Source of the DNA: Tubiluchus corallicola
Lineage: Eukaryota; Animalia; Priapulida
DNA length: 64,000 nucleotides
NCBI GenBank assembly: GCA_030141605.1
Contig: JAQGDQ010000048.1
Location: 372,001 to 436,000, forward strand
Reading direction: 5' to 3'
In this document: positions 2,503-37,100 of the stretch, in pieces
Layout: each line of letters starts with the position of its first letter
Numbering within the stretch: the first letter of the stretch is position 1
The notes under the pieces: generated by a model
The model's input: only the letters and a program-made list of their open reading frames with translations
Told to the model about the DNA's origin: nothing
The model's database searches: none
Translations under genes and position numbers: made by a program

Positions 2503-4800
2503 GGTCAAAGGGAATCCAGTTTGATGATATTACTTTGGAGAAATTCCGAGACAAGCGTAATTATGATGTAATGGCTTATAGCCAAACAAAGTTGGCCAAC
2601 GTTATTACAGCCAACCAACTAAGTGACCATTTGAAAGGTTTGTAACAAGTACATAGTTAAATTCCTGTTATGATTGTTGGCTTTTTAAGACATTTGTGTT
2701 TGTTTTATTATCTAATTGATTTGTTTTAGTCTAGAAATGCCCAGAGTCGAAATCTATATTATATTACGGAACTTTGTTGATGTCATTTGTTGTATACATA
2801 CCATCTGGTACTCTTATCCATTCTCTGAATTTGAGGGGAAGGCATTAGTTTCTAAAACTTACAGTAGGTTGGAAGCTTACAGTGAAAGCGGCAGAAGTGC
2901 CATGGATGCCAATGGAAGTGAAATGATACTGTAAGATGGTACTGCGAGACTACAAGTCAGCCAAAGACTCGTACTTTTTAATAAAATTAATTGCCATATC
3001 ACTGTACATATATCGTACCAGTGACTAATATGTAATCTACCAATAAACTGCCAAACAATATGATTAATTTGATGGAAATGTTACAGGTTTTCTGTAATGA
3101 AAATTGTTTTAGTTAATAAACTTATCACTTCCCTCTGTAATGCTGTTATAATATTATAATACATGCAGAGCTCTGTGCTATTTTTAACCTAGTTCGTGCT
3201 TGTCAGTCTGATTGTTTATTCGCTGCTTCTCAGCCTCGATCTCAGCAGGGTTTCGAAAGGTCAGTCTCGGTCCTGATCTCGATCTTGTAACTTTAGATGG
3301 GCAGAGAAATTGCAAACACTGCCTGGTGCATTAAAAGAAGAGTGCACTCCCTTTGGTTGAGCTACATTAATAAATACTGTACAATGTTGAAAACCTTGTT
3401 TAGACTTTATCATTTTAATTTGACATGTGGCAGTGTACAAGTAAGAAGGGTGAGTATGTAGGGCTTCCAGAAAAACATCTACTTTGTTGCAGCTTGTTTT
3501 ACATAAAATTACAAAGATCAGCCAGGCAAACTCTCGAACACTAAAACTGTAATTTAATTTAGTTTTAAATTGTAGATTTGCTAATAAGTTTTGCAATTTT
3601 TTATTTTTTTAAGTAACACCATAAAATCATAATTATATTGTTCTTTTCTAGGAACAGGTGTCACTGCTTACTCACTCCATCCGGGTGTCATTACCACGCC
3701 AATCTGGAATACACGGCTGATATACTTGTTTAGCTGGATTATGAAGCGAAGTAGTGAAGGAGCTCAGACAACTATTCATCTTGCAGTTGCCGATGTTGAA
3801 GAACATTCTGGAAAATATTTTTCGTATGTCATCAAAGTACTAATGATATTGTTTTCTTGCTTTAGATAGTGTTGATGATAGTTGATGATGACAATGATGA
3901 CGATGACGACGATAGATGATAATGATAGAGGATGGTATTTAGTTGAATTTATTGGCAAAATGTGAACAATTGTTTCTTCACAATAACTTAATTTAAAGAG
4001 AATGATATAGTACTGAATGATTTATAACATCTGAAGTATTTGTAATATCTATAACGAAAACTCGTGCAAGAACGAAAGTAGAAAGTACTTAATTAGACTG
4101 TAACATGTTAAAGTCCCTATGTTACAGTTTGAAATGTGCACATTTATTGGCTTAATTGTAACTAAATGTAATTCTAATTTCATTGCCATTACCAAAATTG
4201 ACTTTTACAAAATTATCTTGTTGTCTGCATTACTCTAGACACTGGCCAGAAAATGTGAAGCATCTTTTCTTAAAATTCTTCTTTCACAGTTCACTTTTAA
4301 ACAAGGATGCATATCATTCTGACACTAACATACATCACTTGATACTTGTACTTTGCTAACCAACACTTACTGGCATAATAACAGAAGGTCTTATGGCGGC
4401 AGCTTAATTTTTTGACAGTTGTTTGCAGTCATTACCATGACAACATTTTGGTTCACAATTTTGAGATTTAAAAACATTTCTAGCAATGTTTTTGTATGAC
4501 TGAAAGTTTTAAAACACTGTGTTCTTCACAACTTTAAATAGAAACAAGTTTAAATACATTATTTTACATTTTTAAAAATTCTCTGATTTATATAGTTTAA
4601 ATAAAACCTAAATTTCAACTCAGCATTATTATTTGCACTGCGAACAGGCTAATTATCTCCGAATTATAATATGTTACAGTGATTGTGCTGTTAAAGAGCC
4701 ATCTAGAGATGCCTATAATAAGGAGGTTGGTAAAAGACTATGGCAACTCAGTGAAACTATGACAGGATTAAAGGAAAGTGAGCAAGCAGATGGAAAATAG
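2503..4800 (+). CDS. RDH11/12/13/14-like SDR gene 1, C-terminal cassette 1 (5' exons lie upstream of the window)
   Basis: Exons 2503-2637 (SKGIQFDD...AYSQTKLANVITANQLSDHLK, catalytic YxxxK), 3652-3823 (GTGVTAYSLHPGVI...EGAQTTIHLAV...GKYFS) and 4680-4800 (DCAVKEPS...RLWQLSETMTG...stop). All introns are GT-AG with continuous phases 1/1/2. AATAAA at 5114. Confidence 0.92.
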
Positions 4801-6000
4801 TCACTCAATGGATCTTAAATTATGTAAATCCAACTGTCATCGTACAGTACCATTTAAAAAACGTTTGAGGGCACATTCTTGTAAAAATTATTCTGATAAA
4901 TTCCAACTGTTGTAGACCTCAATAATATCTTTCTAGTAGGTGACTAATTTTGTAGGTTTTGTGCAAGATTCGTAAATAGTAATATTTTATTAGTATTATA
5001 TTTTCTTAATTGTACAGCTTTAACTATGATGTTTTACTGTACACCTCTATTGAAAACACTTTGTTTGAAAGAGTGCTTTGTAAATATAATAATAATATTA
5101 TTATTAAACAGCAAATAAAAACATTTTATTTCACTTTATCTTTTGTCATAAATACAGTAATTCTTGAAGTAACATTTGTTTACACTTTCACTATTTACAG
5201 TTAGTATAATTTTTTGATGTTAGAATGATTAATTTTTTCATGACTGTATATGTAACTGTAAGTTATAACAGACTTTGTAAAGTGCATCGAGATCACCTGA
5301 TGTGCTGTATAAATAATAAATTATTATTGTTGAATTAAAGCCTGGTATTTTATCTTCTTCATTAAATAGTAAATGATTGTCGTATGTCCCGTGTTCTTTC
5401 TTTGTGTTCATTTTGTCATAACAAATGTAGCAGTTACTAATTATTTTTCTTAATTTCTTATCAAACTGACAAGACTACTTGAAAATCTTTTGACTTTGTT
5501 CTTGACTGAAATTCTGAGATTAAAAGATCGTCAACCTTGATATGCTTCGTTGACAGCAAACAAACAAGAGGTTACCAACTGAAACTAAGAAACAAAGATT
5601 GTGCAGGAAGATTGGAGAAGTAATTATTGTGCTTCTATGATTATAACTTTTGCAACAAAAGTGGCTGGTTTGCAAAACAGGCAACAAAATAACAACGTTT
5701 GCAAAACTGTGACTAAATTTAACAGGTGGCATGGATGGTACCAGCAATGGCAATTTTTTTAGCGCATGTGGTAGAACTTTTTCAATCATGTTTCAACTAA
5801 TTTTTACCAGACTAACAAGTCGGTTGATGCCACTGCCATTTCTCTTTTGTCAGGTGAATTGAATAAGGCTTTATTGTTCTCAATGTATGAATTTTTTTGT
5901 TTTTCTTAATTATCCTAAAAAAACACCGAATATTATGCTATCTCATTGACATCACTGTTTTACAAGTTGTGTTTCAATTTTGTTGCGTCTGTTTTTTTAG

Positions 6001-8950
6001 GGTGTCCAAAATTTGAATGGGACGATTTAAACTATGAAAGAAGAAAATATGTTTTATATGGACAAGGGTCCTACAGTCAGTCAAAACTAGCTAATGTTGT
6101 CTTCACTCGTCACCTGGCTACACTCTTAAAAGGTAATATATTAAAATAGCCTATTTACTAGTAGGTCATCATTTTATAAGCGTAGAGAGATACAAACTAG
6201 CACAATTTACACATGTTGCTCCTTTGTAACTCTTCTTCAAAGCATAACTAGAAAAGACATAATTGCAATCCACAATAATATCCCTTATTTATAATTATTA
6301 AGTTCATGTAATGTTTTGTTTGTTGAAGATGCTTGTAATTTCAATTTCAATTTTTTCAAGTTCGTGCAATGTTTTGTTTGCTGAATATGCTTGTAATTTC
6401 ATTTTCAATTTTTTCAATTTTATTTATTTCACATCAATAGTATATCATAGTAACATACATATAATAATTGCATAATCATTGCACAATTTTAGTTCCAATT
6501 AATACATTTTACATACATATAATAATTGCATAATCATTGCATAATTTTAGTTCCAATTAATGGATATAATTATAACAATTAGTATCTATTTATGATTATA
6601 CTACTGTAGCAATTCTAGAAGTTTATAATAGCTTGTAAGATCAGCTGAATGTGAAACAGAAACAAGGAGGAGGAGGAGAATCTGTAATGACGGCATTTCT
6701 CGTGGGTGATAGTAATTAGTAACTTATGCAATACGAGTAAGAAGCGCACTTAATTTTGGTAACGTTGCGAGACTGATACTAAGGCGGTTTATGTGTACCT
6801 GTTTCTGAATACAAAGCTTACTGAAAGATCAATTAACCTTTCAATGCTTTTATTCTACTGACAGACAATCTGAGTAAGCAAGAAAAAAAGAAAAAAAATA
6901 CATTGCAATAGTTAAACATGGCCATTTCAAGAATTACAGCACAAGTTTTTGGTATCAAACAGTAACCCCATAGTAACTGCAGTTTTCACTGTCTATAAGA
7001 GTTTGTGCACAAGATATCACCAATTTGAGTAATCACAATTGAGCTCAGAAGTAAACTGTTACTTATCTCTGGAGTGAGCGCTCACCACGTCAGTCCATTG
7101 GCAATCACTGGGGGTACACCCGCCATCTCTCCAAGGAAGGAATACTATCTCCAAAACATCGGATACCATGCTCGACAGTACTAGATGCCAGTCCGTCCAC
7201 ACCATGACAACAAGTGCTGGATTCCTTATACTGTGTAGAAGGCTCAAAGTCGTTTTTTTCTCCACTCAATTGCATCACAACACATTGTCCATTAGGATAG
7301 TATTACACCATTTACCACTGTCCAGAACTTTTCACAATAAAACATCAGTTCAGCCAATTTCAACAGATGAATCTCAGGTTTGCCCTCAAAATTATAAACC
7401 CAACATTTTAACTGCCATCATTTTCCAGACTATTCTACACACTTCTCAATATCAAAGGCACATTTTCCTGCTACTGGAACATTTTACTACATTTCAAGGT
7501 AGTTTGATACTTTAGACAGGTAACTATAACACTATATAGGCTGAATGAGAAAGCAAAACACCCCTGTAATAAAGTAATAAGGCCGAAGCCAACACACTTT
7601 CAAAATGACCTGCATAACACTGACATTTAGGTTACCTTTGGGGCAGATGTAGTTCATGGGTGCCTAGTACATTATTACAACAACAGCAGCAAAAAATAAA
7701 GTAAACTATGCAGGTAGTTTCCTTATACAAAAACAAACTAAATTAAGCCCCTTCAATCGAATAAAACATTTATCATTGAACCGAATTTGTATAGTATAAT
7801 GTACAAAGGTGGTTGCTTGTAATGTGTAAGAACAAACTTTAGCCAAGGGGTGGACATAGTCTGGTCCATCACAGAATCTATACACAAAAGTATGTAGAAA
7901 AGGAATAAGTAAAAAAATGTTATGCCTAAAATGAAGAAAGAACAGAATAAGATATGAGAATTATAGTTATTATGACAGCTTCAACATGCAACCATGTGTA
8001 ATAATGAATTCAGTAAATGATACAATTAAAAATAGTTGCGTACTTTAGACGAAAAATGTTTGTTTTTTAATGGCTATACTGTGTGATTTTTATTATTATT
8101 ATATTTATTCGATTTATAGGTTATAGTAGCAGGAAAATTTGTTTTTCAGGTATACAGGTCTTGTGAGGTTAAACATATTAGTTGATTTAAATGTCATCAC
8201 TGGTGCTATATGTTTTTTCAGATTCTGGTGTTGTTGTTAATGCTTTACATCCTGGTGCAATATGGACTAACTTGGGGAATGCAATGCCATGGCATTGGAG
8301 ATTGTTATTTATACCATTAATGCCACTGGTCTTGTTTGTGAAATCTGGCAAACAGGGTGCACAAACCAGTATCCATCTAGCTGTATGTGAAAAAACAAGT
8401 CAGGTCACTGGAATGTATTTTTCGTAAGTACTGTGCTTCGTTCTGTGCCATGTTGTGTACGAATTAAATCTTTTGCCGAAATAAGCTTTAAGTACATCCA
8501 CTGCTGGTACTTATTCATTGTGTGTGGCTAGCAAATATGTGTCGGGTTCTCATATAGGTTATTAGTATGTCATCTTCAGTTCTCGCCTGTTGTGTATATA
8601 TTTGGACCACAAATTTTGATTATCTTCTATTATTGTAATACATTATATTGTTGATTTTGGTATTGTAGTTTTATTACATTATTCACGCCCGTCTCCTATG
8701 ACACTGCTTGTAACAGTTGTTGAAGCAATACCAATACAAAAGTTGCACCGTGCCATTTGCTATGCATATAAAAATTGAATTTTTGTAGTGTTTTAGTAAG
8801 TTAATTTACTTGTTATTAATTTAACAAGTTAATGCAGTATTATCTTTTTTATTCAGGGATTGTGCCATAGCTAAACAGTCAGAAGTTTCTAAGAATGACG
8901 AAGTAGCAGCAAAATTATGGGAAGTTAGTGCACAAAGTGTAGGATTATAA
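6001..8950 (+). CDS. RDH-like SDR, C-terminal cassette 2 (probable alternative 3' half of gene 1)
   Basis: Exons 6001-6132 (CPKFEWDDLNYE...SYSQSKLANVVFTRHLATLLK), 8222-8423 (SGVVVNALHPGAIWT...QGAQTSIHLAV...GMYFS) and 8857-8950 (DCAIAKQS...KLWEVSAQSVGL stop). Frame and splice sites are intact. AATAAA at 9310. No N-terminal exons seen between 4800 and 6001. Confidence 0.9.
6310..6561. repeat. Two adjacent tandem duplications of about 58 bp each
   Basis: aatgttttgtttg...caattttttcaa x2 (6310-6420) and acatacatataataattgcataatcattgc...ccaattaat x2 (6453-6561). Confidence 0.8.
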
Positions 8951-10240: not shown

Positions 10241-10433
10241 CAGTAAAACCTCTTTATATGGCCCACTTTTAGACTCCAGAAAAAATTGGTGTTGAACGAG
10301 TTTGGAATTATAATGAGGTGCATGTCACACATGTCTATTGAAATATAGACATTTTGTTTTGCCAGAAATGTGGGCATTAAGCAAGGTTGGGAGTAGTACA
10401 AGGGGGGTGCAGTGTTATAACGAGATTTGACTG
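10241..10433. mobile_element. pogo/Tigger-type MITE
   Basis: TA-cagtaaaacctctttata ... ttataacgagatttgactg-TA: imperfect inverted ends with a TA target duplication. Confidence 0.6.
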
Positions 10434-10957
10434 TACTTCATTAACCTTTTTTGTTGCGGTATACATTTGTAGCACTATGTAAGCACCTAGAATTATCTGC
10501 AACTGCCATCGGAAAGGAAAATTTGAATGTCCCTTTCAAACACGTCTGTAGTTGGAACTGATGCTGCACATGCAGTACTTGATAAGCACAGTAATGGACG
10601 AAGTGAAAGCTTTGTTTCTAAGGAAAGCTTAAGCATAATCATATATAAATATCTACTGACATACTACGAGCCTACTCTACATTGATAGACAAATCCATAC
10701 GAATCTCCAAAGTCTATGCAATAATGCAAATTCATTAAACTACAGATGTTGGTAATTATAAACCTACAATGTCAACAAAATGAGCTTTACATTGTTATCC
10801 ATTGCATTGAAAAACATGACATAACTTCTATCTTTTGGCTAATGCTGTATAGCAAAAATCTGTTTTTGAGATTGTTTAATATTTGTTCAGTAAATCTTGC
10901 GAATTGTGTGTTCACAGCATATTTTCGAATATTGAATATATTAATTGTGTGTTGCAG

Positions 10958-11098
10958 TTTCAAAACCAATAGATTGGGAAGATTTGAACTATGAAAAACA
11001 CGAGTATGTTGAATCGTCCTTGAAAGGCGGCTCGGCATATGACCGGACAAAACTTGCAAACGTTTTGTTCACAGACTATCTTGCAAAGAAACTACAAG
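10958..11098 (+). CDS. Orphan RDH catalytic exon A3 (no B/C exons of its own)
   Basis: ttgcag acceptor, open frame [46 protein letters not shown], gtaaga donor. Close paralog of exon 19635-19772. Confidence 0.75.
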
Positions 11099-11110
11099 GT
11101 AAGAAAGATA

Positions 11111-11272
11111 CAGTTGTTGCCGTTTATTAGACTCATGGTTAATAGAATCAGTTGCATGATTAACTCAAAAACTGAGTCAATAGTTTGCTCCTTCTATTCA
11201 AATGTATATAAAACTGTCAATAATAGATTCTAATGACTCCTCCTAATTGACTCAGTATTTTTGCTTCGAATG
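11111..11272 (+). mobile_element. Isolated left end of a pogo/Tigger element
   Basis: Starts TA|cagttg and aligns with 11493-11645 (tagactca.ggttaataga, cttctattcaaat.ta.ataaaa, taatt.actca.tattttt). Confidence 0.6.
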
Positions 11273-11490
11273 TAGGAAAGTTTGGTACAAGTAATTTTGG
11301 TACCGGGAAAATTTGGTACTAGGAATTTTTGGTGTGCGCTAATTTTGGTACTGGTAAATTTGGTACTATCATCTCAAGGTACAAGGAATTTTTCGTACTA
11401 GAAAAATGTGGTACGAGGAATGTTTGATACGAGGAAAATATGATGCCAGGATTGTTTAATACCAAGAAATATTGGTACAAGGAAGTTTTG
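11273..11490. repeat. Degenerate minisatellite, ~16-17 bp unit (GGAAAATTTGGTACNA-like)
   Basis: Roughly a dozen imperfect adjacent copies of the aatttggtac core. Confidence 0.7.
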
Positions 11491-11492
11491 TA

Positions 11493-12394
11493 CAGTAGTC
11501 GCTGCTTAATAGACTCACGGTTAATAGACTCAATCGCTTAATTGACTCAAAAACGCCTGGATCGGGCCGCTTCTATTCAAATATACATAAAAGCTATCGG
11601 TAATTGACTCAAATAACTTCCTTAATTAACTCAATATTTTTCCTTCATGTACTTAAAATAAGACATTTGTATGTGCCCAAACAGCCTTTCCTACTTTTAT
11701 GTCATCTTTACATCCCTTTTGTGCATTATATATATATAGAAACAAAGACCTAACAGTTAAGGAGAAACTGAAAATTTTAGTGCAGTACGATAACTTCCAA
11801 AGATGGGACAGAGGTGTGCAGCAGCGCAGGTGAAAATTTCCCAAAGTACTCTCGGCAGAATATTGATAAAACGATTTGAAATTGAGCTGTCAGCAAACCA
11901 AAATGAGAATCTAGCATCTAAGAGGCGATGCACAGGAAAAGACTGTAAAGTGGAGTCAGCATTAAAAGTGTGGTTTACAAATGCACAAGAAAAAGATGCT
12001 CAGGTGAATGCTCCTTTAAGGCATCAGAAAGCAGAAGATCGGAAAAGAAGAATTTGTTGCAACAGAGGGGTGGTTTCAGCAATGGAGAAAGCGTGAAAAC
12101 ATCATGTACAAATGTATCCATGGTGAGAAAAAAGATGCTGATGTTCCAGCTGCTCAAAATTAGATGGAAGAGTGGCCAAAAATTATTGCAGTATGTTCAC
12201 CCAACATTTACAATGCGTATGAAACTGAACTTTATTTTAAAGCTTTGCCTGAGCACACCTACTTATTTGGGAATGAGAATGCAAAAGGGTGTAAGATTTC
12301 AAAAGAACGTGTGACAGTGCTATGCTGTGTAAGCATGTCAGGAAAGAAGGAAAAACTGCTGGTGATTGGAAAAAGCAAGAATCCTGCTATGTGA
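11493..12394 (+). mobile_element. Truncated, frameshifted pogo/Tigger (TIGD-like) DNA transposon
   Basis: TA|cagtag terminus. Fragments in several frames: CENP-B-type HTH (KDLTVKEKLKIL...ISQSTLGRIL; VESALKVWF...QKAE) and the start of the DDE domain (NIYNAYETELYFKALP...KERVTVLCCVSMSG...LLVIGKSKNP). Confidence 0.88.
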
Positions 12395-13811
12395 AGGAGC
12401 TTTTGAGGATTCCAAACTAGCAAATATTCTCTTCACCTTTAAACTGGCAAAAAAGTTGTTAGGTATTTTTACTTCTCGTACAATGATAACCAAAGTTACA
12501 TGAAACAGTGTCTGTGAATTATTTATTGAGACTAAACAGTACGTGCTCATTCCTGGTGCACTAGACATTGTCCTGCAAAATAACTATATCCACTTACTAA
12601 TTCATTTTAATAATGTGTAATGCCTAAGAAATAGCACAGGACTGCCAGGGAATCTTTGAAAAACAAATCAACTTCACAAGATTGCATTCTCATTATGGAG
12701 CTGTTTGGAAAATTTTTACGCTATGTATTCAAATTAGTTAATAGTCATTTATCTTGTTTTGACCTCAAAATGGTGGGACTGTCATCAAAAATTGAGCTTA
12801 AAGCAGAAACATTCTATAGCTGTCACTAAAACTGACTCAAAAAACTCTAGTTGATCTGGGCTGACCATAAGTGCCATCCTGTTTTTCTTCAAGAATGAGT
12901 GGTGACAAAAAATGTGTTTGCTGACCATACCAGTAATCTCAATAAAGATTATATATTTTTGTTTTTTAATGTTAATTAAAAATAATGTTTTTTCTTCGTA
13001 AAATTTGTATTAATTTAATGCTTTCTGTAAAAATATCATTGTATGCTCATGGTAAATTTAGCAATAAATTCTAATTCTAATTCTAAATAAATGAAGATTA
13101 TGTATAAAAAAAACTGAAGAAAGATAGGTACATTTATTAACAAGCTAAATTATTTTTGCGACCATGTCCTTGTACTTGTACTTTGACCTCTGTGTTGCTA
13201 CGCTGTAGTACTAATAACCACCAGACTCACTCACATATAGCTTCCAGTCTTGTATAAGATCAAAGTGTACCACTTTGCTGGATAGTGATCAGTAAGTTTT
13301 CAGGACACATTTTTGCAATTTTTTTAATAAGTTTAGAAAGATAAGAATTTGCAGTTTAAAATGTGTTGTTGTGGCAAGATATGCTTGAATTGAAATTTCT
13401 AAGCAAGATTGTTTTGGTAATTGTATGTTTGTTACTGATACAGCAGTTATATTGTTAATATACAGTTAAAGAAAAATCTCATTTGAAACTGATATAGAAA
13501 GTAATCGTTCGATGATTCTTTACAAATATCAAATGTTCTACCAAGTGTCATAATTGGCATTTTTAACGTCTGTTATACAGCTTTTTACGTCTTATATTGT
13601 AAGTTACTTTTAGGTACTAAAAATGTAGTTGCTATAGTAATTGTAGCAAAAATATTTTACATAAAATAAGTAAAACGACTCCTGTTTCTTTATCTGCTAA
13701 AATGTGCTGCTCATACCCATAAATAGTTGCGAAAATAACTTAAACAGTATTTCCACTTAGGTTTGCACCAGTTTTGTGCGCTGATGAGTCACAGTAACCC
13801 ATATCATCAAT

Positions 13812-16800
13812 ATGGCATCTGTTTTATTTAATTTGACTTTTCCGTCTGCAGAAGATGTGACAAATTGGATCAGTCAACATCCAGTTTTTGTTGGATCATC
13901 ATTATTTGCAGGTGGATAATAGCTTTAGCTTGACTTTCAGTTTATTGAAGTTGTAGATACTATTGATTATTATGTTGCACACATACTGTTAAAAAAATTA
14001 GCTTGTTAATTAATCTTTTTGTTTTGTAGGTTGCAAAGTTGCAAAGTGGGCTCTTGCTAGTTTGATTTAGGCAGTTTGATTGTTAACAGATTTTCAGTAG
14101 ATTTATTTTTCAGTTTATTCTGAATCACAATATTTCGATTGCACTTTAGGCTTTGGATATTCGCAAACTAACAAAATTAGCTTTTTTGCTGCATACAAAA
14201 ACTGCCAAATGACTATGATTAATAGATATTATTGAACAGTCTTCATTGAGAATGAGTCCATGATCATAGAAATGAAATTCTATAATCAGGATGGATTTTT
14301 AGAAATAAAAATTGTTAATCGAGATGCTGAAACATAGAGGGAAAAACCGTATCTTTTACACCCACTCACTCTACCTGGTGTAAAAGCTAGCCAATATAGT
14401 CTTAAAGGGTAAATGATTATAATACATATATGTACACTGTCAGTAAAATACATGTAAAGCATATGTACTAACAGACTAAAATTCATTAAAGAAGTGCGCC
14501 CGTCGTTTACAGAGATGGTACTGATGTTCAGTCTCACGGTTTGGGTTCAAGGCTGACAAGAGGTTTTGATTAAGTGCCATTGTTATGAGAAATGTAACGA
14601 ATTTTATGAGAATTTCCAATGGTGTTCGCTTACATTTCATCCCCCTAAAGCGTCGCTCTCATACTGTGAGACTGAACTCACTACGACCCCTGTCGCCACT
14701 GGTCTCACTTCTTTAGTGAATTTAGCAAGAGAAGTGCAGGCTTATTGATTAATGTTTAATTTAAATTTGTAAATTCATATAAGTATAATAGCATACATTG
14801 AATGCGTGTAAATTTTCATTTTCTTTATGAGTTCTGTTTTTGTTTTTAGTTCTTGCATTAGTGGTTGTAAGAAGATGGTTTGCTGGTGGTCGCTGTACTA
14901 GTAAAGCCAGACTTGATGGTAAAACAGTTATTATTACTGGAGCCAACTCTGGCATTGGATATGAAACAGCAAAGGACCTGGCTAGACGTGGTATGGAAGA
15001 GTGATCACTTATAAAACTCAACATAGAATTTCTGTTCACATTTCAAAACTCTGTTATGCATTGAAGAATTGTGCTAGCCTCTTGACTACAAGTATGATGA
15101 GAATCTCTTGCTGTAGAAACCTTACTGTATTTGGTTTTATAACTTGACCCACTCATCAAGCTAAAAGTAAAATTAATCTACCTAGCGTTTTGCAATTTAT
15201 TCTTGTATAATACACTGACATCACAAAGTCAAAGTCAGAAGCTTGGCAGAACATTTGTGTGCTCTGTACTTACACCCTGTACAACAATTGACTTTGTGCT
15301 AAATGTATTTGCACAAAATGATATGAACAGTACATTACGAGGCGAGCACTATCTACTGAGCACCACAGCGTCGATTTTGCATAACCAGGTGTTTACGTTT
15401 CAGGTGCGCATGTAATCCTTGCTTGTAGAAGTAAAGAGAGAGGTCAGAAAGCAGCCAGCAGTATCAAAGAAGTCACTGCGAACAATAATGTCGTATTCAA
15501 ACAGCTTGATTTGGCTTCATTTGCGTCTGTCCGTGCCTTTGCTGCAGATATTTTAAAGACTGAAGCAAGAATAGATATTTTAATCAACAATGCAGGTAAG
15601 AATGGCTTAGTGCAAAATTTGCTTTCTCGTCTTGTTTTTCAATGTGCAAAGTTTAGTTCCCAGCCGAGTATTAACGAATCATAAAAAAGGCATAGTTGTG
15701 TCTTTTGACAAACATGCAAGTTTACTACATGCAAAGTTACGTAAAGACATATGGGTTTAACTTGTCATCAACAGAGGCTCTACTGCTTTACGTTCATTGT
15801 AGATTCAACTTTTAAATAGGTATTATCAGTAAAAAAATTAAGAAATGGTCTCAAGAAAAACAATAGGTGATACACAAAATGCCTTTGGTATTTGGTTATA
15901 TGATCACCTCCATCGATATGGCGTAGTAGTTTGATTTCTTGACTCTTGGACAGTTGTGGTACATGACAATGTAATCGTTAGCTATATTACAGAACCATTA
16001 CAAAACCTGTTTCCAAATTAGTAGGTCTTCCATAGAGTATGAGTGTTTTTAAGTCTTACAGTTCAAGTTTTGTAAAGTCTGCAACGGGCAGGCTGGTTCA
16101 GGTATTGATTAGATTTGATTAATTTTATAGATCTCGAGGAAAATTTGCTTTAGCAAATACAAGACCTGCCATTCCGTGCTGTCATTTTACAATGTATAAA
16201 ATATACTACAGATACAAATTGTGCTAATGTCTGATAAATAAGGATAATGCATGTGCATTCCATACATTCAATTAATAAACGCTGTCTTTAGAAAAGTGTA
16301 CCACTCTGTAACAGCCTCAAAGCTGAAGGCATAAAACAGTGCCTACTTCTCCCCCTGTTAACAACTCTAATCAATAAGATTGTAGTGGAAATGAAACTGA
16401 GCAAATTAGTAATGTGATATTGAAACAAAAAACATAAAAAAATAACCTCCACTGTGAATGCTTGTTAACATTTTTTGACCAAATGCCCTGCAAATCTAAA
16501 AAATTTTGCTGCCAAACAAATAAATGTTATTTGGCTGGGAGTACTATGTACTGTACTGAGTACATGTACTGAGTCAACAATGTTGCTTACTTTACTTTTC
16601 TGGTTTTCCACTGTTAGTGCTATATAATCAGTGTTTCATTTACTTCCTGACAATTATAACCAGAAGCCAATTAGCTCATCTTTGTTTATTCTTCAGCACT
16701 CTTGTTCACATGCAGGCCTAAAAATGAAGCATGTAAATCATTTAACCCATTTCTCATCAAAATTTTATTCTTCAACATGGATTGACCCACATATGAAGAC

Positions 16801-19800
16801 CGAAAATGGCCATGAGATGCAATGGCCCATTAATCATTTAATCCATTACTGTATTTTTCAGCATGGATTGGTCCATATACGAAGACCAAAGATGGGAATG
16901 AGATGCAGTGGCAAGTCAATCACTTGAGCCATTTTCTACTGACAAATCTTCTACTGGATAAGATTAAAGCTTCGGCACCTGCCAGGATTATCAATGTCTC
17001 TTCATTGGCACATAAATGTAAGTCTAGCAAGTGCTTGGTTAGTTTTTGAGCAATTTACAATGTGTTTAGAACAGTTTTTTCAGTACTTGCAGCTGTTTTC
17101 ATCAGTGTTATTATGTCAGTTTGTTAGCATAGTAAAATTTTTCAACGTGGTTCACCACACTCTACTGTTCACTTTTCCAGTGAAGAATTGATAAAAGTCA
17201 TCTATTTCATGATTAATGACACTTAGAACTGCTTTGGTCCTAAAGTAATCTTTTGGAATTTACTACACATTATAAAATACAGCCCTCATGCACATTTTAC
17301 AAATGCTGGTAACTAGTTTCATTATTGTGTCAACTTTTTAGCATGAATCACTTTTATGCTGTCCACTAATGCAATGAAATGTCGCTTCTTTAATGAAAAA
17401 TGTAGTTACTTTATTGGCTAGTAGACGTGACAAATGCGTTACACTAAAACACTCAACATCTTTGAGTTTCAATATTAGAATGTGGTTTAATGTGAAGAGG
17501 GTTGCAAACTTGTACCAAAACTGCACTATAGCTTGACATAACTATGCTGCTAATGGTACCATTACCAGAGTGTAGATCAGTTGCAAACTTGTGCCAAAAA
17601 ACTGTACTATAGTTTGACGAAAACATGCTTCTAGTTTTGTACATTACCAAAGTGAAAATCGGTTGCAGGAGCCAAAATTGCACTATAGTTTGACATACCT
17701 ATACTTCTAACTTTGACATTACCATTGCCAGAGTGAAGTTTTATGCTAATATAAAAATGTTATGTAGTGCACAAAAATGCTGCCTGTTGGAAATTTCAAA
17801 TGCAGTATTTTCAAGTTTTGTACATTTACTGTTAGTGTCTTCAGATTGTGATACAAAAAAGGAATTTTCTGGTAGTGCTAGACTATTTTGTGTGTTTTTC
17901 ACTGTTTTATCTTTGTTTTACTCTTTCTTTTTTGTTTTTAAAACACAAATGAAATTATTAATTAAAGTGAAATTAATGCCCAATTAGGCCATATGATCTT
18001 TTCCAGCTTCAGCCACAGAATAGATTGTTGTCAGTTTTTAAAGATAATATGTGAGACAAATTAATTGCTAAGCCTAATTGTTCAGTGAATTTCAAGCAGC
18101 CTTCTATTTGTGCACTTTAAATGGCAGACACAGTATACCAATTGCCAAACATGTGCAATCTGATTCCATAATTTGGGCGATTTTCCATAATGCTGTTGCC
18201 CATTGAGCTAACATGACTAAAACTGTTGAAGAAATCTTATGACCTAATTGATTAAATGTAGACACTTTTATTATCTGATGTAGTTATTTACATTATGATA
18301 AGTGCTTGATTAGTATTTTCTGCTTCGTGCAATGCTGAAGAAATTTAGAAAACAAGACCTTCCTTAAATTTCCAAATGTCTTTCTTGCTTAATAATTTTG
18401 AGCTGTGACAACTTGTACCCCCAAGCAGCCCTCGCAGAGGCTAAAATTTAATTGCTGCAAAATTATTGCTTGTGAACATGGAGTAGAAGTCTGTGGGACC
18501 ACACTTACCACGGCAAACTGCAAGCGAGCAGCTGAGTTTTTTTTGAGAATTGTTAATAATATTTTGGTGAGTTATCTAGTTGTCCCAACATTCAGTGTGA
18601 CAATTTTGTTTATAACCAAAGATGCTGTTTTCTGGATATTTAGTGAGGCCAATAATTTTTTAAAAAGTACTGTACAACTTCCAATGTTTGTTAATTTGCC
18701 TTGCTTGTAATTCTTTATTATGTTATGCACATAACAGTTACCTTACAACAGAGTTGACTGATTTGTGAAAAAAGGTGTTTTATATTATAGTGCGTAGCAG
18801 ACGTCATGTGATCTACTTAAACATAGTTAGTGCAGACTGTGCAGTCTTTAATTGGAGTGTCTTTATTTCAGCGATAAAACTAATATATGCTTACAATAGT
18901 CTACTGAAATTTTCGACAGTGGAATGTTACATTATCAGAAATTGTTCATGTTTGTTTTCATTCTTTTTTTATTATGCTGATGTCTTAATTGGAGCACTTC
19001 CTGTTAAACTACACGCTCTTATTAATCAAACGCCTATTCTTTTTAAAATTGCTTGTGCATTCTTGTTTAAAATCTAGCAAGAATTTTGGCTTCGAGTTTT
19101 CTATAAATTGTTCTGTCATAGCTGTTTGATTCAGTTACCAGTAGGCTTAGTCACTGCAAGCCTAACGCCACTCACAGTCCGAAAAGACAATCCACAATAT
19201 AATATAAATAAACTGAAAATAAACAGTATATGTAAATTCAGAATACAGTGTATTCATTATAATGAAAATGATGCCTAGTTGCTGCATTTTGCAGATGAAA
19301 TTTTATTATTTGCGTATTTTGAGTAATTACTTGATAGGGTCACCAAATTATTGTTCATTATTGCTTAGAATTTCTTGCTTTTTGAGTAAAACCTACCTGT
19401 TGGTAAGATGCATGATATTAGTGCAAGTTTTTCTGCTGTGTTTTGCATTTAATTAAGAACACAGCACTGTTTCCAATCTTTGGCAAACATTTAATTTATG
19501 TAACTCATTTTTGTTGTTTAAACTAAATTAGATGAATTGTGTTATATAAATTATATGATTAAAACTTTATTCAAACCCTATTTTTTCAAGCACTGTATGC
19601 ATGTTCTGAAGCAAAACATTTTTGTGTGTTACAGATTCAAAACCAATAGAATGGGAAGATTTGAACTACGAAAAACATGAGTATGTTGAAATGTCTCTGA
19701 AAGGCGGGGCATACGAACGAACAAAACTTGCCAACGTTTTGTTCACAGACTACCTTGCAAAGAAACTGAAAGGTAAGAAAGATATTGTAATGGAGTGATG

Positions 19801-20133
19801 GAATAATTTTACATTTACTAAGTTTAGAAATAAAGCATGGCCAAAAAAAGGAATGTGGTAAAGTGAGGGCTGAACCTGGGTTTGAACCCATATTAATGGA
19901 TTGGAAATCCAGCATAATGACCACACAGCTTTTGTCATCAGGTAAGGTTTTTACCCAAAATCAAATGTTAATGAAGCATAACCTGAGAGTGATGACTATT
20001 TATATTCTTCATTTCGTTATCTGTGAGATATATACTCATATCGACATTCATACTCATGTTGACAATCATACTGTTTTTTCATATTCGTTTTGCCTTCTAA
20101 GTCTAAAATGTGAGAAACTGGGCCTGGGTGTGT

Positions 20134-20219
<86 letters not shown>

Positions 20220-20366
20220 TGTTGTAGTAGTAGCAGCAGTAGGAGTAGTAGTAGTAGTAGTAGCAGCAGCAGCAGTAGCAGTAGCAGTAGCAGTAGCAGT
20301 AGCAGTAGCAGTAGCAGTAGCAGTAGCAGTAGCAGTAGCAGTAGCAGTAGCAGTAGCAGTAGCAGT

Positions 20367-20431
<65 letters not shown>

Positions 20432-21554
20432 GAGCAGTAGTCGTATAAATTTATTTTACTATGTAATTTATATTATTGTACATTTGCCCTCAACAGTAAT
20501 TGTCATTTGAGGATTCCAATGCATGTTTTATAGGTGTTAATTTTAGAACACATGCAAACCTAAAAACTGAGTGTTAAGTGACACGCAGTCGATTTTGCAA
20601 ATTTGAATTTTGATTGCATTTCAAATTCTGATTATAATCTGCTATTATGACTTGCAGGTACATCTGTGACAGTGAATAGCCTTCATCCAGGTCTAGTTAA
20701 AACAAATATTGCTCAAAATCTTAGTTGGCATAGCCAACTTATTGTTGTTCTATGCTATCCGCTGACTTTTATGATAATGAAGACACCAGAGGAAGGTGCT
20801 CAAACCACAGTACACTTAGCTGTTTCAGAAGAGGTGGCAGATGTTTCTGGTGCTTACTTTGCGTAAGTTTTACTGCTGTGAAAATGCTAACTTCATTGCT
20901 GTTCAAACATTAGAGCGTGGCATACCTATTTATTGTAGCCAAATGTGAATTTTCATTCTTCCATTCGTTCGTTCATGATCATTTTATTTTCGATATTCAA
21001 TTCAATACATCAGCATTTTTAACATAAATTTTAAGACACTTATTGTTGGGGAATCCAGCACTAAAGCATAAACCACGAATGAGGCATTAGTCGCTTACTA
21101 ATTTGACTGTCTTTGCCAAGTAGCTTATTAACCAGACAATTTCAATCACAAATTCACAACTACTGTACCAAACTTCGCACTTCGAGTTTCGTTAACTCAT
21201 TACCAGAAGTTAATTTGTTCACTGCATAAAGACTTCATTGTAGCTAACTAATTCAAAATTGATAGCAGTAAAATAGGCTTTTGCTTGGAATTTGTATACA
21301 TTGTAGAATTATCAAATTATTAAACATAGTGACAGCTTTTTATAATATTTCAACCTTTTTTATGTGACTTAGTATGACGATGTTAGTAGCCTACACATTT
21401 TCATGCCTGTCTTTGTGTAGTCAGTATTTTTAATTTTAACAAACCTGTATATTTCAGAGATTGCAAAATTGTTGATAAAGGAGATTTGTGTAATGATGAG
21501 ACAACAATGGCAAAGTTGTGGCAAGTGTCTACAGAAGCCGTAAAATCGGAGTAA
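13812..21554 (+). CDS. Retinol dehydrogenase 11/12/13-like SDR gene 2, about 342 aa
   Basis: Exons 13812-13911 (putative ATG exon, weak gtggat donor but in phase), 14850-14990 (RRWFAGGRC...[25 protein letters not shown], TGxxxGxG), 15404-15595 (VILACR...LDLAS...IDILINNA), 16862-17017 ([22 protein letters not shown]...[11 protein letters not shown]), 19635-19772 (AYERTKLAN), 20658-20862 (NSLHPGLV...[11 protein letters not shown]) and 21458-21554. Total 1029 nt in frame. AATAAA at 21581. Confidence 0.9.
14476..14725. mobile_element. Foldback/MITE-like element with ~60-bp imperfect inverted repeats, in an intron of RDH gene 2
   Basis: ctaaaattcattaaagaagtg...gttcagtctcac pairs with gtgagactgaac...cacttctttagtgaatttag. 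Confidence 0.6.
17501..17735. repeat. Three tandem copies of an ~80-bp unit
   Basis: gttgca...ccaaaa.tgcactatagtttgac...cattacca.agtg repeated three times. A single homologous copy lies near 391-450. Confidence 0.75.
19866..19935 (-). pseudogene. tRNA-like remnant (tRNA-derived SINE head or pseudo-tRNA, TCC anticodon-like loop)
   Basis: Minus strand reads ...gtggtcattatgctggatttccaatccattaatatgggttcaaacccagg. It has a B-box-like gggttcaaaccc hairpin, but the acceptor and D stems are degenerate. Confidence 0.35.
20134..20442. repeat. Compound microsatellite (AGT)n/(AGCAGT)n/(AGC)n
   Basis: Direct reading; intronic in RDH gene 2. Confidence 0.97.
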
Positions 21555-22986: not shown

Positions 22987-24381
22987 TGTATCTAAGATTA
23001 GGCTGTGGTGACTTACACTTTGAAATAAAGAACTACATTTCATTTTGCATTGGTAAGGTAGCTTATGAGCGATGCAAGCCGACAAATCTGTGAACTAGCA
23101 AAAAGGCTCAGGTATGTTTACTTCTCATACAGTGCAATGGTATTGGCATGCAAATTACTAGACACGTCCTGCAAAATTTGGTTTCTGTTTTGAAAATACA
23201 TAACAGGTTGCTGCGTGGTAATGTTGCAACTAGTATGTTTTTTGCTATTAGTGGCTACAGAGTTGTACCCAATTGTTGCCTATCTTTAGTAATAGATGGC
23301 GCACAGTGGATGAATAGCTGATCCATACAGATAAAAAGCCGTGTTATTTATGCACGTTCACATGCTGCAGTGTGCCGTAAATGTGACATACCATAAGAAC
23401 CAGATCGGCTCAGGAAATTTAGGCCAATGTCAATTTTGGTCCCTGCTCCTCCCATCAATATGGCAGTGAAAACAGTACATTTTAGGACATTCCACTACAT
23501 GTATGTAATATTATAGTCATCCAAGGCATCTTTTAGAGGTTTTAGTTAGTCCCGACTCATCAGTTTGAATATCAATGTTCCCACTCTATTCGAATAATAA
23601 CACTCAATATGGTGGCCAAAATGGTATCCAAAATAACATCTGCAATATTTTCAGCTAGTCCACAATATTTTTTCATATTAGTTTGGAAACATCCTGCAGC
23701 TATTGAGCTGAGACTTGCCACGTTCGTAGTACATTGATTGTCTAAAAATTTCAGCAATTATTAAAAACGTTGCAGTGACAGCTGAATATGAGAAACTGTG
23801 GGAAAATGCCTGAAGTTATGTATCGCTGCACAAAACCACATTTACTAGACAAGTAGATTTACTAGCACTACTAGCACTTTAAAAAGTTTCAGATTTTTCA
23901 GGGACTGATGTAAGACTGAACTCTCTTCGTCCATCCACCAGCAATCTAAACACATGGAGGTTGTACTTGTCAGAACATTTAGACATTTGGTAACTAAAAC
24001 AGAAGGAGGCGCTCAAACGCCTAATCATTTGACTGCTTCTGAAGACGTAAAAAGCATCTCTGGTTCATACTTTGTGTAAGTAGTCTCTGTGATTAGCTTA
24101 TTTGCAAGTTGCTTATCATTATCCTGTCTACAGGAGGCAGAACACAGAGCACTTTTACCAATAACCAACATAAATATTTATCTTTATTTAACTGATATTG
24201 ACAAAGTATCATCAAAAATAACGTTTATTATGTACTTTGGAGAGGTTTGTGAGCAAAATTCTATCCTCCATTGATTGTAAGAGATTATGTCATTGCAAAA
24301 GCATCAGAAATCAGTAGGGATGGGGGAAACCCTGTCAGTAATATGGAAAGTTCCTGTAAAAGTCTTTAGATTAAAGTGTGA
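22987..24381 (+). pseudogene. Degenerate RDH C-terminal cassette 5 (pseudo-exons A, B, C)
   Basis: 22987-23111 (GDLHFE...AYERCKPTNL then stop/frameshift, ELAKRL, gtatgt donor); 23902-24075 ([10 protein letters not shown], stop/frameshift, EGGAQTPNHLTASEDVKSISGSYF, gtaagt donor); 24282-~24381 (DYVIAKASEIS, frameshift, IWKV). Each aligns to the matching intact cassette exon. Confidence 0.75.
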
Positions 24382-28015: not shown

Positions 28016-31000
28016 TCATACCAAAGTTAGCGCCCCGGCAGCGTAGCTCACAGAAGAATCATGAAAGCTCATACACTGATTGGACTGCGCATATTTTAGA
28101 AATTTTAAGTTCGTCTTTGTGCCATTTTTACTGTTTCGTCGTAACGAATCCACGGCCTGAAAAAACAATTAAAGATTAAAAGTCATACGAAAAGCCAACT
28201 TCTGCTTGAGTTTTGACTTTTTCAAGTGCACATTTAATAAACACGAGCACCCATACACAGAAACTTTCTTCATTTACCCTTATGCTTCAGTGTCTATAAC
28301 TAATGCCATAGTCATAGGAACTTACAAGTGTATTAACTAAAATATAGTAATTCTAGTGATCATTATTAAGACTTCAATTGCATTATTTAGAAAACACTGT
28401 ACTGTTTTTAAAAATTAAAGTAAAATGTATAGTGTTCATTTGCAGTACTATGTGTACAGGAGAACAGAAAGTAATTTTATACCGATATTATATTTTTTCC
28501 GCAAAATTTTACCAAAATGACAAAATGGGAAACTTCAAATTTGTTTTTACCTCAGATCTTTTGAAATTTCCAATATTTAATAGTTGCACAATGTAAGTGC
28601 AAAGCCAATTGCAGGAAAGAAGTTGCTAGTGAAAGTGCAGCAACGTAAATGTAAAAAAATGCCAGCCAAATGGTAATAAAATTTGTAATAATGGAACATT
28701 TAAAACAAATATAGTGCACAACAGTAGAAAGTAAAATTTTAGAACACTTTCCAGTATAGTGGATTGGTGATTAAGATTCTTTTTTAGAGAATGTTATGGC
28801 AACGCTTGCCACAACTTCATGAATTTCAGCGCACAGCCTGTCCCAAAAATAATTAAATGCATACTTCATGAGAACATGTGTATAATTGTTTATATAAAAC
28901 ACACTGAGAATAACGTAGTAACTCTCTAATTAGGAAATGCCCTTCTGCACAAAAAGATTTCTGTCTACATCCCAGCAAACAGATTCAACAGTTTTGCCAA
29001 GGGTTAATGTAAAAGCATAACAATGACCACTGTATAATACACACTATTTTGTGACAATGACTTACATTCAGGAGCACTGCTATGGGATGTCTACCACATA
29101 TTGTATTTTGGAATTGTCGCAAATAGTCTCCAAAACCAAGCGGATCCAATTTCTCAATCATATCCATGCCCTGCAATTTGCAATATTGGAGTAAAAGGGA
29201 AAAAGATCACTAACTCGCATTGTAAAAAGCTTGCATACTGTCAAGCAGGAAATATTGGAGTAAAAAGAAAAAAAACGCTAACTAAACAGCTGTGTCACAA
29301 TTGGATGTTTAAACTGTGGCTCTGATAAGAGAGTCATATCAGCAGTGTTGCACCTGATTAATGAGAGGATCAACTGACCCATTGCCACTGGTGCCTGACC
29401 TATAATCTAACAACCATGCAATGAATGTGCATTGACCACATATGGTAGCGCAAAGTCTAAATTCTTGGTTCATAGCAGATCATATGCCTTTGCATGTAAT
29501 TTACCTCCAACAAGAATTACAGTGACAATTAATAAAACGTTGCAAGAAGTTGACTTATTTAATACAACACCAAATGTTCATAATTAATCCACAGGACAGA
29601 TGAGGTGCCCTTCTACAATAGAAAACAAACTATAAATAAATTAAAAATAAATTATGTTTTAAACTAATGTAAATGCAGTGAAACATTCTGTTTGTTCACT
29701 TGCAATGCTCACGGGAAGCGCATTGCAAATCATAAAGCTTTTTGACTAACTTTTTCTATAAGGGCAACGGTAGGATCGTTTTACATAACACAATCTTACA
29801 AAATAGAGATGCAGGATAAATTCAGTAACAGGCATAAACTAAAAAGGGTTTCAAAGAGACACATGCAGACAAACATGCTAATAAGTGTGAAAAACAGCAT
29901 TGCGCAGGTCTACAAGTATGGTTTCTTCATATTCCGTTAGTTCACTGGAAAAATTCCTTGATCCGCTTCATTTTATTTATAAGTAGTCAAACTTCTTCAG
30001 TGCATTCTTCAGATAAACAATAACTTACCCTCCTATCCAGTTTCTCAATGGATTGATATATATCACCGTGACCTTCATCATAATATGTGAATCGAAATCT
30101 CTTCCCTATAAGATGCAACAAATAAGCATCAATTATTCACTGAATAAATGCCAAGGCAAGTTGATCAAGCTTAATTTTAACAAGAATTTTTGTGATTACT
30201 TCTAATCCCAAACAAGAACTCAAAGTAACAGTTTTGTATTTTGAGATTAGTCACTAACCTTCACACTTGGAATAAAGCAACCTTTAGCTACACTTACAAT
30301 GATATCAGTTGTTGAGAAAATAAAAACGAAATTATCCCTAGAAACTTAGAAAAGACTACCCAGTTGTATGCACTTTTATCAAGAATTTTTTTATGAAGAG
30401 TCAGTCTTGTATGGTACACATTCCATGCTTAAGCCAGCCATCCAAGCATTCCCAAGAGCTAAGCAGTCAAGACAATGCATTAAAAGTCATTTTCCAGGGA
30501 AACAAGCCACATCGACATTTAATATTTACTTTCTTACCCCAGTGGCAAAAATCAGAAGATATTACAAAAAGAGACGAAGAATCTTCTAAATATCGTTTAA
30601 ATATTTCCCCATATTCCTGTTCTCTTTCACTGGAAAGTGAACCAACCAGTACTGGAATTATCCTGAATTGTCCCTGAAAGCTAAAAGTAAAAATGTATAT
30701 GAACAAGGTACGAAAAGTTCTTCACAGAAATCAGTATCAAATTTTTTGCAGTTTTTAATAAATTTCAATTATTTTTGTCTTCTTGCTCTATTACAATTTA
30801 TTATAAAGGCAAGATTTCCTAAGCATTCACTTATCTATGTATTACTCTAAATTACCGTTAGAACTGTGTGAACCACTGCAGACAAAATGAGTAGTACAAA
30901 AGTTCCAGTAAAACAAAAACCAAAATTTACATACTTTTCCATGACTTTGGCTATAAACGGCAACTGCATTTCTATGCTATGCTCATCTTCGTCTGTCGAT

Positions 31001-34000: not shown

Positions 34001-34825
34001 ATGATTTAGGTACAAGTCATACACATGTAGCTCAGTTATGCATCAGACTAAATCGAATATCATGGTCTGTAGTCTATACCTGCACAGGAATGAATTTAAT
34101 GGAACTTGTATCACATTTTACTAGGCCTACCCATTTTCCTGTGTTCGTTGTTCATTTTGGTTACCGCTACATGAGTTTCAAGAAATACGGAATGTATTTA
34201 TTATCGTAATTTTACCTACACGAAAAAATGCAAACAAACATACTGCATATATGATGCCGCATCTTTTGTTGTAAAATGCATTATTTGTTTGCCAGTGCAA
34301 TAATGCAACATGCAATTTTGTTGGTTACTTTTAACTTTTAACCAGATGCCACAGTTAATTGATTTTCAATCATGCCTAGCATCTGCAAAATCCCATGACG
34401 ACTGCAGTGCAGTGCATAGTCACTCCTCATGATTGCTGCTTGACAAACTTACAAAGTGTTTCGCTTTGTTACATTGAGACTAAGTGAAAACTGAAAACCG
34501 AAAATCCAGAAAAAATTGCTAATCAAATAAAAAGTTGATTAGCAGCAGGTGCTAAGCAAGTTGGAACAATTAAATTTAAAACTGCAGCAATCTGTATCTA
34601 GTATACATTGAAGTTAAAAATACCTTGTAACTAGCAACTATTTGGTACTCCCAAAATTCTGCTTTGATTGCAGATGACCAGCACAGCCTGCCAATTGATG
34701 TACAGGCAATGCGTAAACTTTAGACATTTTATAAAATTCCTAGGAATTTTATATAATACCTAATCATCTTGGTAAAAGTGTGAAAGAAATGTTTTTGCTG
34801 TGACTCTTTCACACCTTGCCCAGAT

Positions 34826-34909
<84 letters not shown>

Positions 34910-36637: not shown

Positions 36638-37100
36638 TTCAAGTCTTGTGTTCTGATTAGGACTTAGAAAACAAGCAAAACTGCGTGTAAACCGAGCCAG
36701 ACTTTTCACAATAAAGCCGGACGTAAAACAAACTTCGCTTTTGCCTTTAGGGACATAACAGTGATCTAATTTTGAGCCGCAAAATAACGATTAGTTGAAC
36801 AAACCGTTTTCGGTAATCGTCGTTAGCGACTTCACTGCGGACTCAACGCTAACATTTCAAAGAGTCCCTGTAATTCTACTCTTAGGAAAAAATCTTGCAA
36901 AGTTAACGTTAAACACAATTTAGCATAAAAAACTGTTTGTTTACGACGGGAAAGGATGGAAAAATTAGTACAAACAAGGGATGTCAAAGAATGAACCTCA
37001 AACAGAATGGAGGAGATATACGATAATTATGTAATTATGTTAATCTGACTCAAGAACATGTTGAAGGTACATATTCTTGCCAATTACGTTTTCTTTTTTT
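36638..37100. promoter_or_regulatory. Probable divergent promoter region for MEMO1 and GMF
   Basis: Head-to-head gene arrangement, and CpG appears locally enriched against the depleted background. The TSS is not determined. Confidence 0.4.

Follow-up and report, generated by a model that had tools for sequence, protein, structure and literature searches.

The DNA analysed here is a window of 64,000 nucleotides from the priapulid Tubiluchus corallicola (assembly GCA_030141605.1, contig JAQGDQ010000048.1, positions 372,001 to 436,000 of the forward strand); positions are counted from its first letter. With a GC content of about 0.25-0.40 and intron-rich genes, it is AT-rich animal DNA. The first 25 kb of the window carry, on the plus strand, exons of RDH11-14-like short-chain dehydrogenases (SDR), which belong to two neighboring genes and are listed in Table 1. 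The exon A3 of gene 1 is the subject of this analysis. It encodes a catalytic motif and has no terminal exons of its own, and an initial annotation had proposed that A3 is still in use and is spliced across 9.5 kb to the terminal exons B4 and C4 of gene 2.

Table 1. Exons of the SDR genes and transposon pieces in the first 25 kb of the window
Feature	Position	Strand	Remarks
Gene 1, intron 4	1-2502	+	colinear with gene 2 intron 4
Gene 1, cassette 1	A1 2503-2637; B1 3652-3823; C1 4680-4800	+	A1 with YSQTK; C1 with stop; found by tblastn; spliced B1-C1 contig in X2
Gene 1, cassette 2	A2 6001-6132; B2 8222-8423; C2 8857-8950	+	A2 with YSQSK; C2 with stop; found by tblastn and nhmmer; X2 contigs
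Gene 1, cassette 3, first exon A3	10958-11098	+	YDRTK; AG/GT intact; no B or C exon of its own
Pogo/Tigger-like element, 5' end	11109-11274	+	75% like 11491-11651
Minisatellite, 16-base unit, 13.8 copies	11273-11490	+	separates the two transposon ends
Second pogo/Tigger-like element, 5' end and transposase	11491-12385	+	cut at start of DDE domain
A', 3' half of gene 1 cassette-4 A exon	12386-12462	+	donor intact; identified by homology to A5
Gene 2, 5' exons	E1 13812-13911; E2 14850-14990; E3 15404-15595; E4 16862-17017	+	E1 with ATG; E2 with GxxxGxG
Gene 2, cassette 3	A4 19635-19772; B4 20658-20862; C4 21458-21554	+	A4 with YERTK; C4 with stop
Gene 2, decayed cassette 4	A5 22987-23111; B5 ~23893-24076; C5 ~24283-24370	+	A5 and B5 frameshifted; C5 weak (nhmmer E 1.1 only)

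The exons E1-E4 and A4-B4-C4 of gene 2 together form an open frame of 342 residues. E2 contains the motif TGANSGIG, and E3 matches the Pfam family adh_short with 33.3 bits against a cut-off of 26.6. The A exons hold the catalytic YxxxK, and the B and C exons complete the SDR domain. The two whole cassettes of gene 1 are 1.2 kb apart with no 5' exons between C1 and A2. As cassettes 1 and 2 and A3 have no 5' exons of their own, they would use those of gene 1, the last of which, E4, is placed about 200 bases before the window because the first 2.3 kb are colinear with intron 4 of gene 2. The A exons of cassettes 1, 2 and 3 are only 37-57% alike. The best reading of the locus is that a retinol-dehydrogenase-like gene, in which one set of 5' exons would have served four tandem 3' cassettes, was later duplicated. 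An SDR in which a single cofactor-binding half is joined to interchangeable catalytic halves (2503-8950) is probably the more solid point of interest here. E1-E4 occur once in the window, except that the acceptor and the first part of E4 lie in an 86-base tandem repeat (16766-16933). CAG is changed to AAC in the upstream copy, which is also frameshifted and is a dead partial copy of the exon.

The best named matches of the proteins of the locus are arthropod and other animal RDH11-14-like proteins. The motifs GxxxGxG, NNAG and YxxxK are shared with RDH11/12/13/14, and the RDH11-14-like name carries with it a putative retinoid or carbonyl reductase activity. Close relatives are nevertheless absent from the protein collections: B4 matched 23 of 62 candidates at 42-55%, and E3 matched 16 of 302 at 61-70%. 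A protein search with A3 matched none of 10 candidates and, among cluster representatives, gave two weak matches, to a centipede and a spider gene model; a metagenome scan with A3 returned 80 loci at 39-57% identity, none of them useful. The centipede model P0040 starts with a piece like A-B without an N-terminal half, and two more SDR units follow. A cassette array of a similar kind could underlie this, or simply a misjoined model.

Contigs that bear on the splicing of these genes come from one small set, X2, which is presumed to be RNA of a divergent relative and differs from the exons of gene 1 by 3-9%. Joints of the GT..AG type are found in it at 3823-4680 and 15592-16859. In one contig of the set, B1 and C1 are spliced together and an A1-like end precedes B1; others cover pieces of A2 (7 differences in 89) and of C2 (3 in 90), and a spliced E1-E2-E3-E4 of the gene 1 type is also present. 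The A2-B2 joint is derived from depth arithmetic only, and X2 holds no contig that joins E4 to A2. These contigs fit the use of two cassettes with one set of 5' exons. At 80% likeness, the region 10420-20100 is matched by 12 records, none of them over A3, A' or A4; since X2 also lacks 5' exons of the gene 2 type, this result was not used. Six tests of docking/selector pairing between parts of intron 4 and the regions upstream of the cassettes gave pairings that were matched in strength by 2-18 of 20 shuffles.

The duplication that separated the two genes can be dated in three ways. Intron 4 of gene 1 aligns with that of gene 2 in three blocks (9-962 with 17232-18140, 1245-1565 with 18292-18581 and 1821-2257 with 18693-19112), in which 1035 of 1468 aligned columns are identical (d 0.37), each block scoring above all shuffles. 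Exon E3 differs from a paralogous X2 contig by a synonymous distance (dS) of 0.39, with a ratio of replacement to synonymous distance (dN/dS) of 0.19, when 22 of the 23 differences are used. This contig and a second copy in the DNA contig set X1 have at least 12 letters of E2 and E3 in common, and we read the second copy in X2 and X1 as the putative 5' exons of gene 1. As these two values agree with the dS of 0.42-0.49 between A3 and A4, the three clocks point to one age for the duplication. The cassettes that remain are complementary: gene 1 has whole cassettes 1 and 2, and gene 2 has a whole cassette 3. Descent of the gene 2 cassette from cassette 1 was considered and rejected, as B4 and B1 are 46% alike as protein, the A1-B1 and A4-B4 introns compare at chance level (76/200 shuffles), and the likeness of the B1-C1 and B4-C4 introns is marginal (2/200, in one of seven tests).

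The exons A3, A4 and C4 and the acceptors at 14850 and 20658 lie where the initial annotation had placed them, all with AG/GT, and its count of 10 synonymous and 5 replacement differences plus one codon between A3 and A4 is borne out. When the extra codon is placed at Ser, the 10 synonymous changes fall on 27.8 sites and the 5 replacements on 107.2 sites, giving dS 0.49, dN 0.048 and a ratio of 0.10. When the gap is moved one codon earlier, there are 9 synonymous and 7 replacement changes (dS 0.42, dN 0.068, ratio 0.16). The deficit of replacements exceeds chance, as Fisher p is 5e-5 for 10 against 5 and 9e-4 for 9 against 7. Four residues differ (D/E, S/M, D/E and Q/K), and the splice dinucleotides and YxxxK of A3 are intact. 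The comparison of A3 with A4 that had been suggested as a check thus yields a low dN/dS, 0.10-0.16. Other A exons polarize three of the replacements, in an alignment read by eye, and all three fall on the side of A3; two are fairly and one is weakly polarized, and three of three is not significant.

The flanking intron had been described as much more diverged than the exons. The likeness of A3 and A4 in fact covers only 10945-11110, reaching 13 bases 5' and 12 bases 3' of the exon, and the DNA beyond is not homologous, so that the flanks are useless as a neutral control. The intron upstream of A4 has its counterpart in the intron preceding A1, the homology reaching at least 2257/19112 (0/300 shuffles), and shows no homology to the DNA before A3 (105-125/300 shuffles). 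That no B or C exon follows A3 holds true: tblastn, nhmmer and shuffled local alignments find no remnant in 11099-13811, where 74-196 of 200 shuffles score as high as the local alignments.

The DNA behind A3 is made of transposon pieces. The first of them opens at a TA 11 bases into the A3 intron (11109), and the same TA is empty in A4. In the transposase of the second element, an HTH_Tnp_Tc5 match (E 0.066) is followed by positions 1-29 of the 177 of DDE_1 (E 0.005), ending at 12385; both matches are below the curated cut-off, weak but in order, and the 3' inverted end of this element is absent from the window. The element belongs to a high-copy family, with X1 depth in the thousands at 11296-11926, and a DNA contig of X1 that aligns to 11972-12322 shows 12 differences over 350 bases, together with one gap. 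The transposon had been taken for heavily decayed. Its transposase, the frames of which were read by eye against Tigger motifs, is interrupted over some 660 bases by only two frame switches and a single stop. At assumed rates of one indel per nine substitutions and a stop from 4.5% of substitutions, these three lesions correspond to d ~0.034 (interval 0.007-0.10), that is, to about 3% decay, as opposed to about 20% on the branch leading to A3.

The cut transposase is joined directly to A', a half exon that the initial annotation had passed over and in which the catalytic Tyr is replaced by Phe. With its donor, A' is identical to A5 in 61 of 82 columns (0/200 shuffles). The joint at about 12385 is therefore visible on both sides, the DDE domain breaking off at position 29 of its profile and the exon starting in its middle. 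As the order A3...A' is colinear with A4-B4-C4-A5, gene 1 must once have held B3 and C3. A recent loss of private B3 and C3 exons, which the initial annotation had named as its alternative, is for these reasons the better-supported reading. A' was tried, and abandoned, as an internal control for the deletion being recent: its Tyr is lost and its distance from A5 equals that between the introns, so that A' probably died near the time of the duplication. Behind the donors of A' and A5 lies a nearly identical stretch of 22 bases (12560-12581 and 23157-23177; 64/200 shuffles, not significant alone). The duplicated unit may end here, as homology between the copies is lost beyond this stretch.

The donor of A3 is compatible in phase with the acceptors at 14850 and 20658, as had been stated, which are those of E2 and B4, and equally with those of E3, E4 and A4, so that phase does not discriminate among them. 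Because the lengths of E2, E3, E4 and A4 are divisible by three, A3 is in frame with all five acceptors, and joining it to E2, E3, E4, A4 or B4 gives open frames of 552, 505, 441, 389 or 343 residues, respectively, when the 5' exons of gene 2 stand in for those of gene 1. Pairing of RNA between the donor side of A3 and the acceptor side of B4 is at chance level, 13 of 20 shuffles pairing as well. With the frame automatic, no such pairing and the transposon young, a present splice to B4-C4 is without support. The claim that A3 is selectively maintained thus stands for most of its history, during which purifying selection acted on it, and lacks support as a claim about present use. The low dN/dS of A3 would reflect selection before the deletion.

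We consider it probable that A3 is a young leftover, orphaned by a recent deletion of B3 and C3, and that it does not borrow the ends of its neighbor. From the exon map, the homologies, the joint, the three divergence values and the frames, the events may be ordered as follows. In the ancestor, one set of 5' exons, encoding a membrane anchor and the NAD(P)-binding half, would have been spliced to one of four tandem A-B-C cassettes, each encoding a catalytic and substrate-binding half. Gene 2 would have arisen from it by tandem duplication, the copies differing by about 0.4 substitutions for each neutral site. A deletion that began immediately in front of A1 and stopped immediately in front of the cassette-3 exon would then have removed cassettes 1 and 2 from gene 2, where cassette 4 would have decayed. 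Gene 1 presumably retained cassettes 1-3 for most of the time since the duplication. Nested transposon pieces would then have been inserted into the A3 intron, and a later deletion would have taken the 3' part of the element, B3, C3 and the 5' half of A'. As this deletion removes part of the element, it must be younger than the element. Whatever else remained of cassette 4 would also have been lost from gene 1. The loss of B3 and C3 would have been tolerated because gene 2 encodes the cassette-3 enzyme. Any inclusion of A3 today would most likely be leakage, by reading on into the intron, where a stop follows after 10 codons, or by splicing to the nearest acceptor, E2.

The time for which A3 could have stayed intact without selection was estimated by simulating neutral decay. 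The exon remains intact, with at most 4 residue changes, with a probability of 0.75 at d 0.01, 0.56 at 0.02, 0.31 at 0.035, 0.15 at 0.05 and 0.004 at 0.1, and never at 0.2. As the own branch of A3 is about 0.2, A3 has not been dead since the duplication, and its present state needs no present selection; the probability of an intact A3 without present selection is about 0.3-0.6.

Several observations weigh against A3 being an unused leftover. A3 has no hard lesion, and its 5-7 replacements are not above the number expected under continued constraint. A neutral quarter of the A3 branch has a probability of 0.03-0.09, depending on the background ratio (0.03 at dN/dS 0.15 and dS 0.43), and a neutral tenth one of 0.14 at that background, so that B3 and C3 must have been lost very recently. 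At the element's upper bound, d 0.1, an intact A3 has a probability of only 0.004, and the dead exon A', at a distance of 1.3 kb, shows clearly more decay than A3 does. The X1 contig that matches the element may be an allele of the same copy rather than a sister copy. The dating presumes one deletion and the assumed rates; an earlier loss of B3 and C3, with the cut in the element coming later, is also conceivable. In reaching A2 or A3, gene 1 would already skip several exons, so that a long skip would be nothing foreign to it. Taken by themselves, the sequence data would perhaps favor continued selection about 1.5-fold.

The borrowing proposed in the initial annotation would have A3 under selection today, with transcripts of gene 1 running across the promoter of gene 2 and skipping E2, E3, E4 and A4 to splice to B4-C4, which we regard as rather unlikely. 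It agrees with a dN/dS of A3 that is not above that of the functional exon E3 (Fisher p 0.51), with the intact acceptor and donor (AG/GTAAGA) and with the multi-exon skipping that is predicted for gene 1 anyway; since B4-C4 are the duplicated counterparts of the B3-C3 that were lost, it would give a whole SDR as its product. It is equally doubtful that the splice arose as a rescue after a transposon-anchored deletion, leaving interleaved genes with common terminal exons, or that it yields a cassette-3 enzyme with the N-terminal half of gene 1, so that one enzyme would be made with two different NAD(P)-binding halves. The low weight given to all this comes from prior considerations: four in-frame acceptors and a promoter precede B4, the product would be a near-duplicate of that of gene 2, and no RNA pairing bridges the distance, either above shuffles or among the 25 longest of 310 inverted repeats. 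The pyrimidine tract of E2 is also longer than that of B4 (0.76 against 0.65), and the donor side is now transposon DNA. A recent loss accounts for the same counts without a new mechanism. If the deletion were limited to one haplotype or to the assembly, A3-B3-C3 would exist elsewhere and A3 would be an ordinary working cassette exon, which would fully explain its intactness. The gap lies among nested repeats that belong to a high-copy family, and polymorphic deletions and misjoins are common in such repeats. The sequence to the right of the joint is, however, unique exon sequence rather than a second repeat copy, which is not expected from a simple repeat collapse, and a second B4-like exon appears in no result, the reads not having been searched with B4. 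This explanation, too, is unlikely, if a shade less so than the borrowing.

It is much less probable that A3 is kept for a read-through fusion with E2, which would be some 550 residues long and in which a partial SDR domain would precede the whole domain of gene 2. The frame is open (552 residues); joining to the second exon is the commonest read-through pattern (PMC2953495), and read-through between tandem paralogues can yield active two-domain proteins, as in feline APOBEC3 (PMC2397500). The first domain of such a fusion would be without its B and C parts, leaving little reason for selection on the residues of A3, and three AATAAA signals lie between A3 and the ATG of gene 2. Hardly any weight falls on the possibility that a dead A3 has been renewed through gene conversion by A4, or that only the exon was copied from A4. 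The short reach of the likeness, 13 bases before and 12 after the exon, would suit it; both borders are otherwise explained, by the end of a deletion and by the transposon insertion. The dS of A3 and A4 equals the intron and E3 clocks, so that no recent homogenization took place, a dN far below dS is not expected from conversion, and A' behind A3 matches A5 behind C4.

The preferred reading, in which A3 was recently orphaned, places the locus among known systems. A gene with shared 5' and alternative 3' parts is an already known kind of architecture. In Drosophila, PGRP-LC, CG42235 and pipe have common 5' exons followed by tandem homologous 3' cassettes of several exons, each with its own stop, that arose by duplication of 3' cassettes (PMC6191721). 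Like them, the present locus has tandem 3' cassettes that comprise more than one exon each and lack any 5' exons of their own. It differs in that the variable part encodes the half of an SDR that carries the catalytic YxxxK and binds the substrate and in that the whole gene was later duplicated, and the sharing of common exons among the cassettes is here predicted from sequence. Docking/selector pairing, by which the fly genes work but which the architecture does not require, was not found in the parts of intron 4 tried. If the reading holds, the enzyme is organized like pipe and CG42235, with one cofactor-binding half and swappable catalytic and substrate-binding halves. A full-text literature search for SDRs of cassette design found nothing relevant, which is weak evidence, most subscription papers being outside its scope.

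Splice isoform separation, in which paralogues such as CALU, MARVELD3 and U2AF1 keep different ancestral alternative exons, is described in PMC4494069, where the alternatives of MARVELD3 also encode the C-terminal half. The complementary cassettes of genes 1 and 2 would be of this kind, given the ancestral state proposed above. Unlike those cases, they are cassettes of three exons in a tandem duplicate at an invertebrate-type locus, and the last step was apparently recent and left an intact first exon behind. If A3 is indeed a recent orphan, the locus is a clear record of such a separation at its last step, and the low dN/dS between its paralogous exons is a record of past rather than present selection.

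If the borrowing were true instead, a neighboring duplicate would rescue a broken isoform through long-range cis-splicing. Read-through transcripts mostly drop the upstream gene's terminal exon and the downstream gene's first exon (PMC2953495, PMC6862657), so that E2 rather than B4 would be the expected partner of A3; functional read-through between tandem paralogues is known from feline APOBEC3 A3CH (PMC2397500). A3 resembles such conjoined genes in that its donor could join the exons of the downstream gene in frame. In UGT1A and the clustered protocadherins several units have common terminal exons, and each variable first exon is served by a promoter of its own. A3 is instead internal to another gene, and the sharing of terminal exons is hypothetical; a literature search for interleaved genes that share exons found nothing relevant.

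Other features of the window were noted in passing. Within gene 2, the first intron contains nested inverted arms of 46 and 29 bases, 72-76% complementary (14479-14723), resembling a small hairpin element, and the A4-B4 intron contains (AGT)n/(AGC)n repeats that form a compound microsatellite some 300 bases long (20136-20440). A MEMO1-like gene, three exons of which match the Pfam family Memo above the cut-off, lies on the minus strand at about 29000-36800 and converges on the SDR cluster. Also on the minus strand are a reverse transcriptase remnant with a weak RVT_1 match (38190-38670) and a Cornichon exon identified by Pfam (about 49700-51100). An exon on the plus strand at 56879-57106, without a Pfam match, is presumably kinesin-like, judging from a motif. 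Finally, an inverted pair of sequences of about 350 bases, 69% alike, is located at 60964-61325 and 61977-62314.

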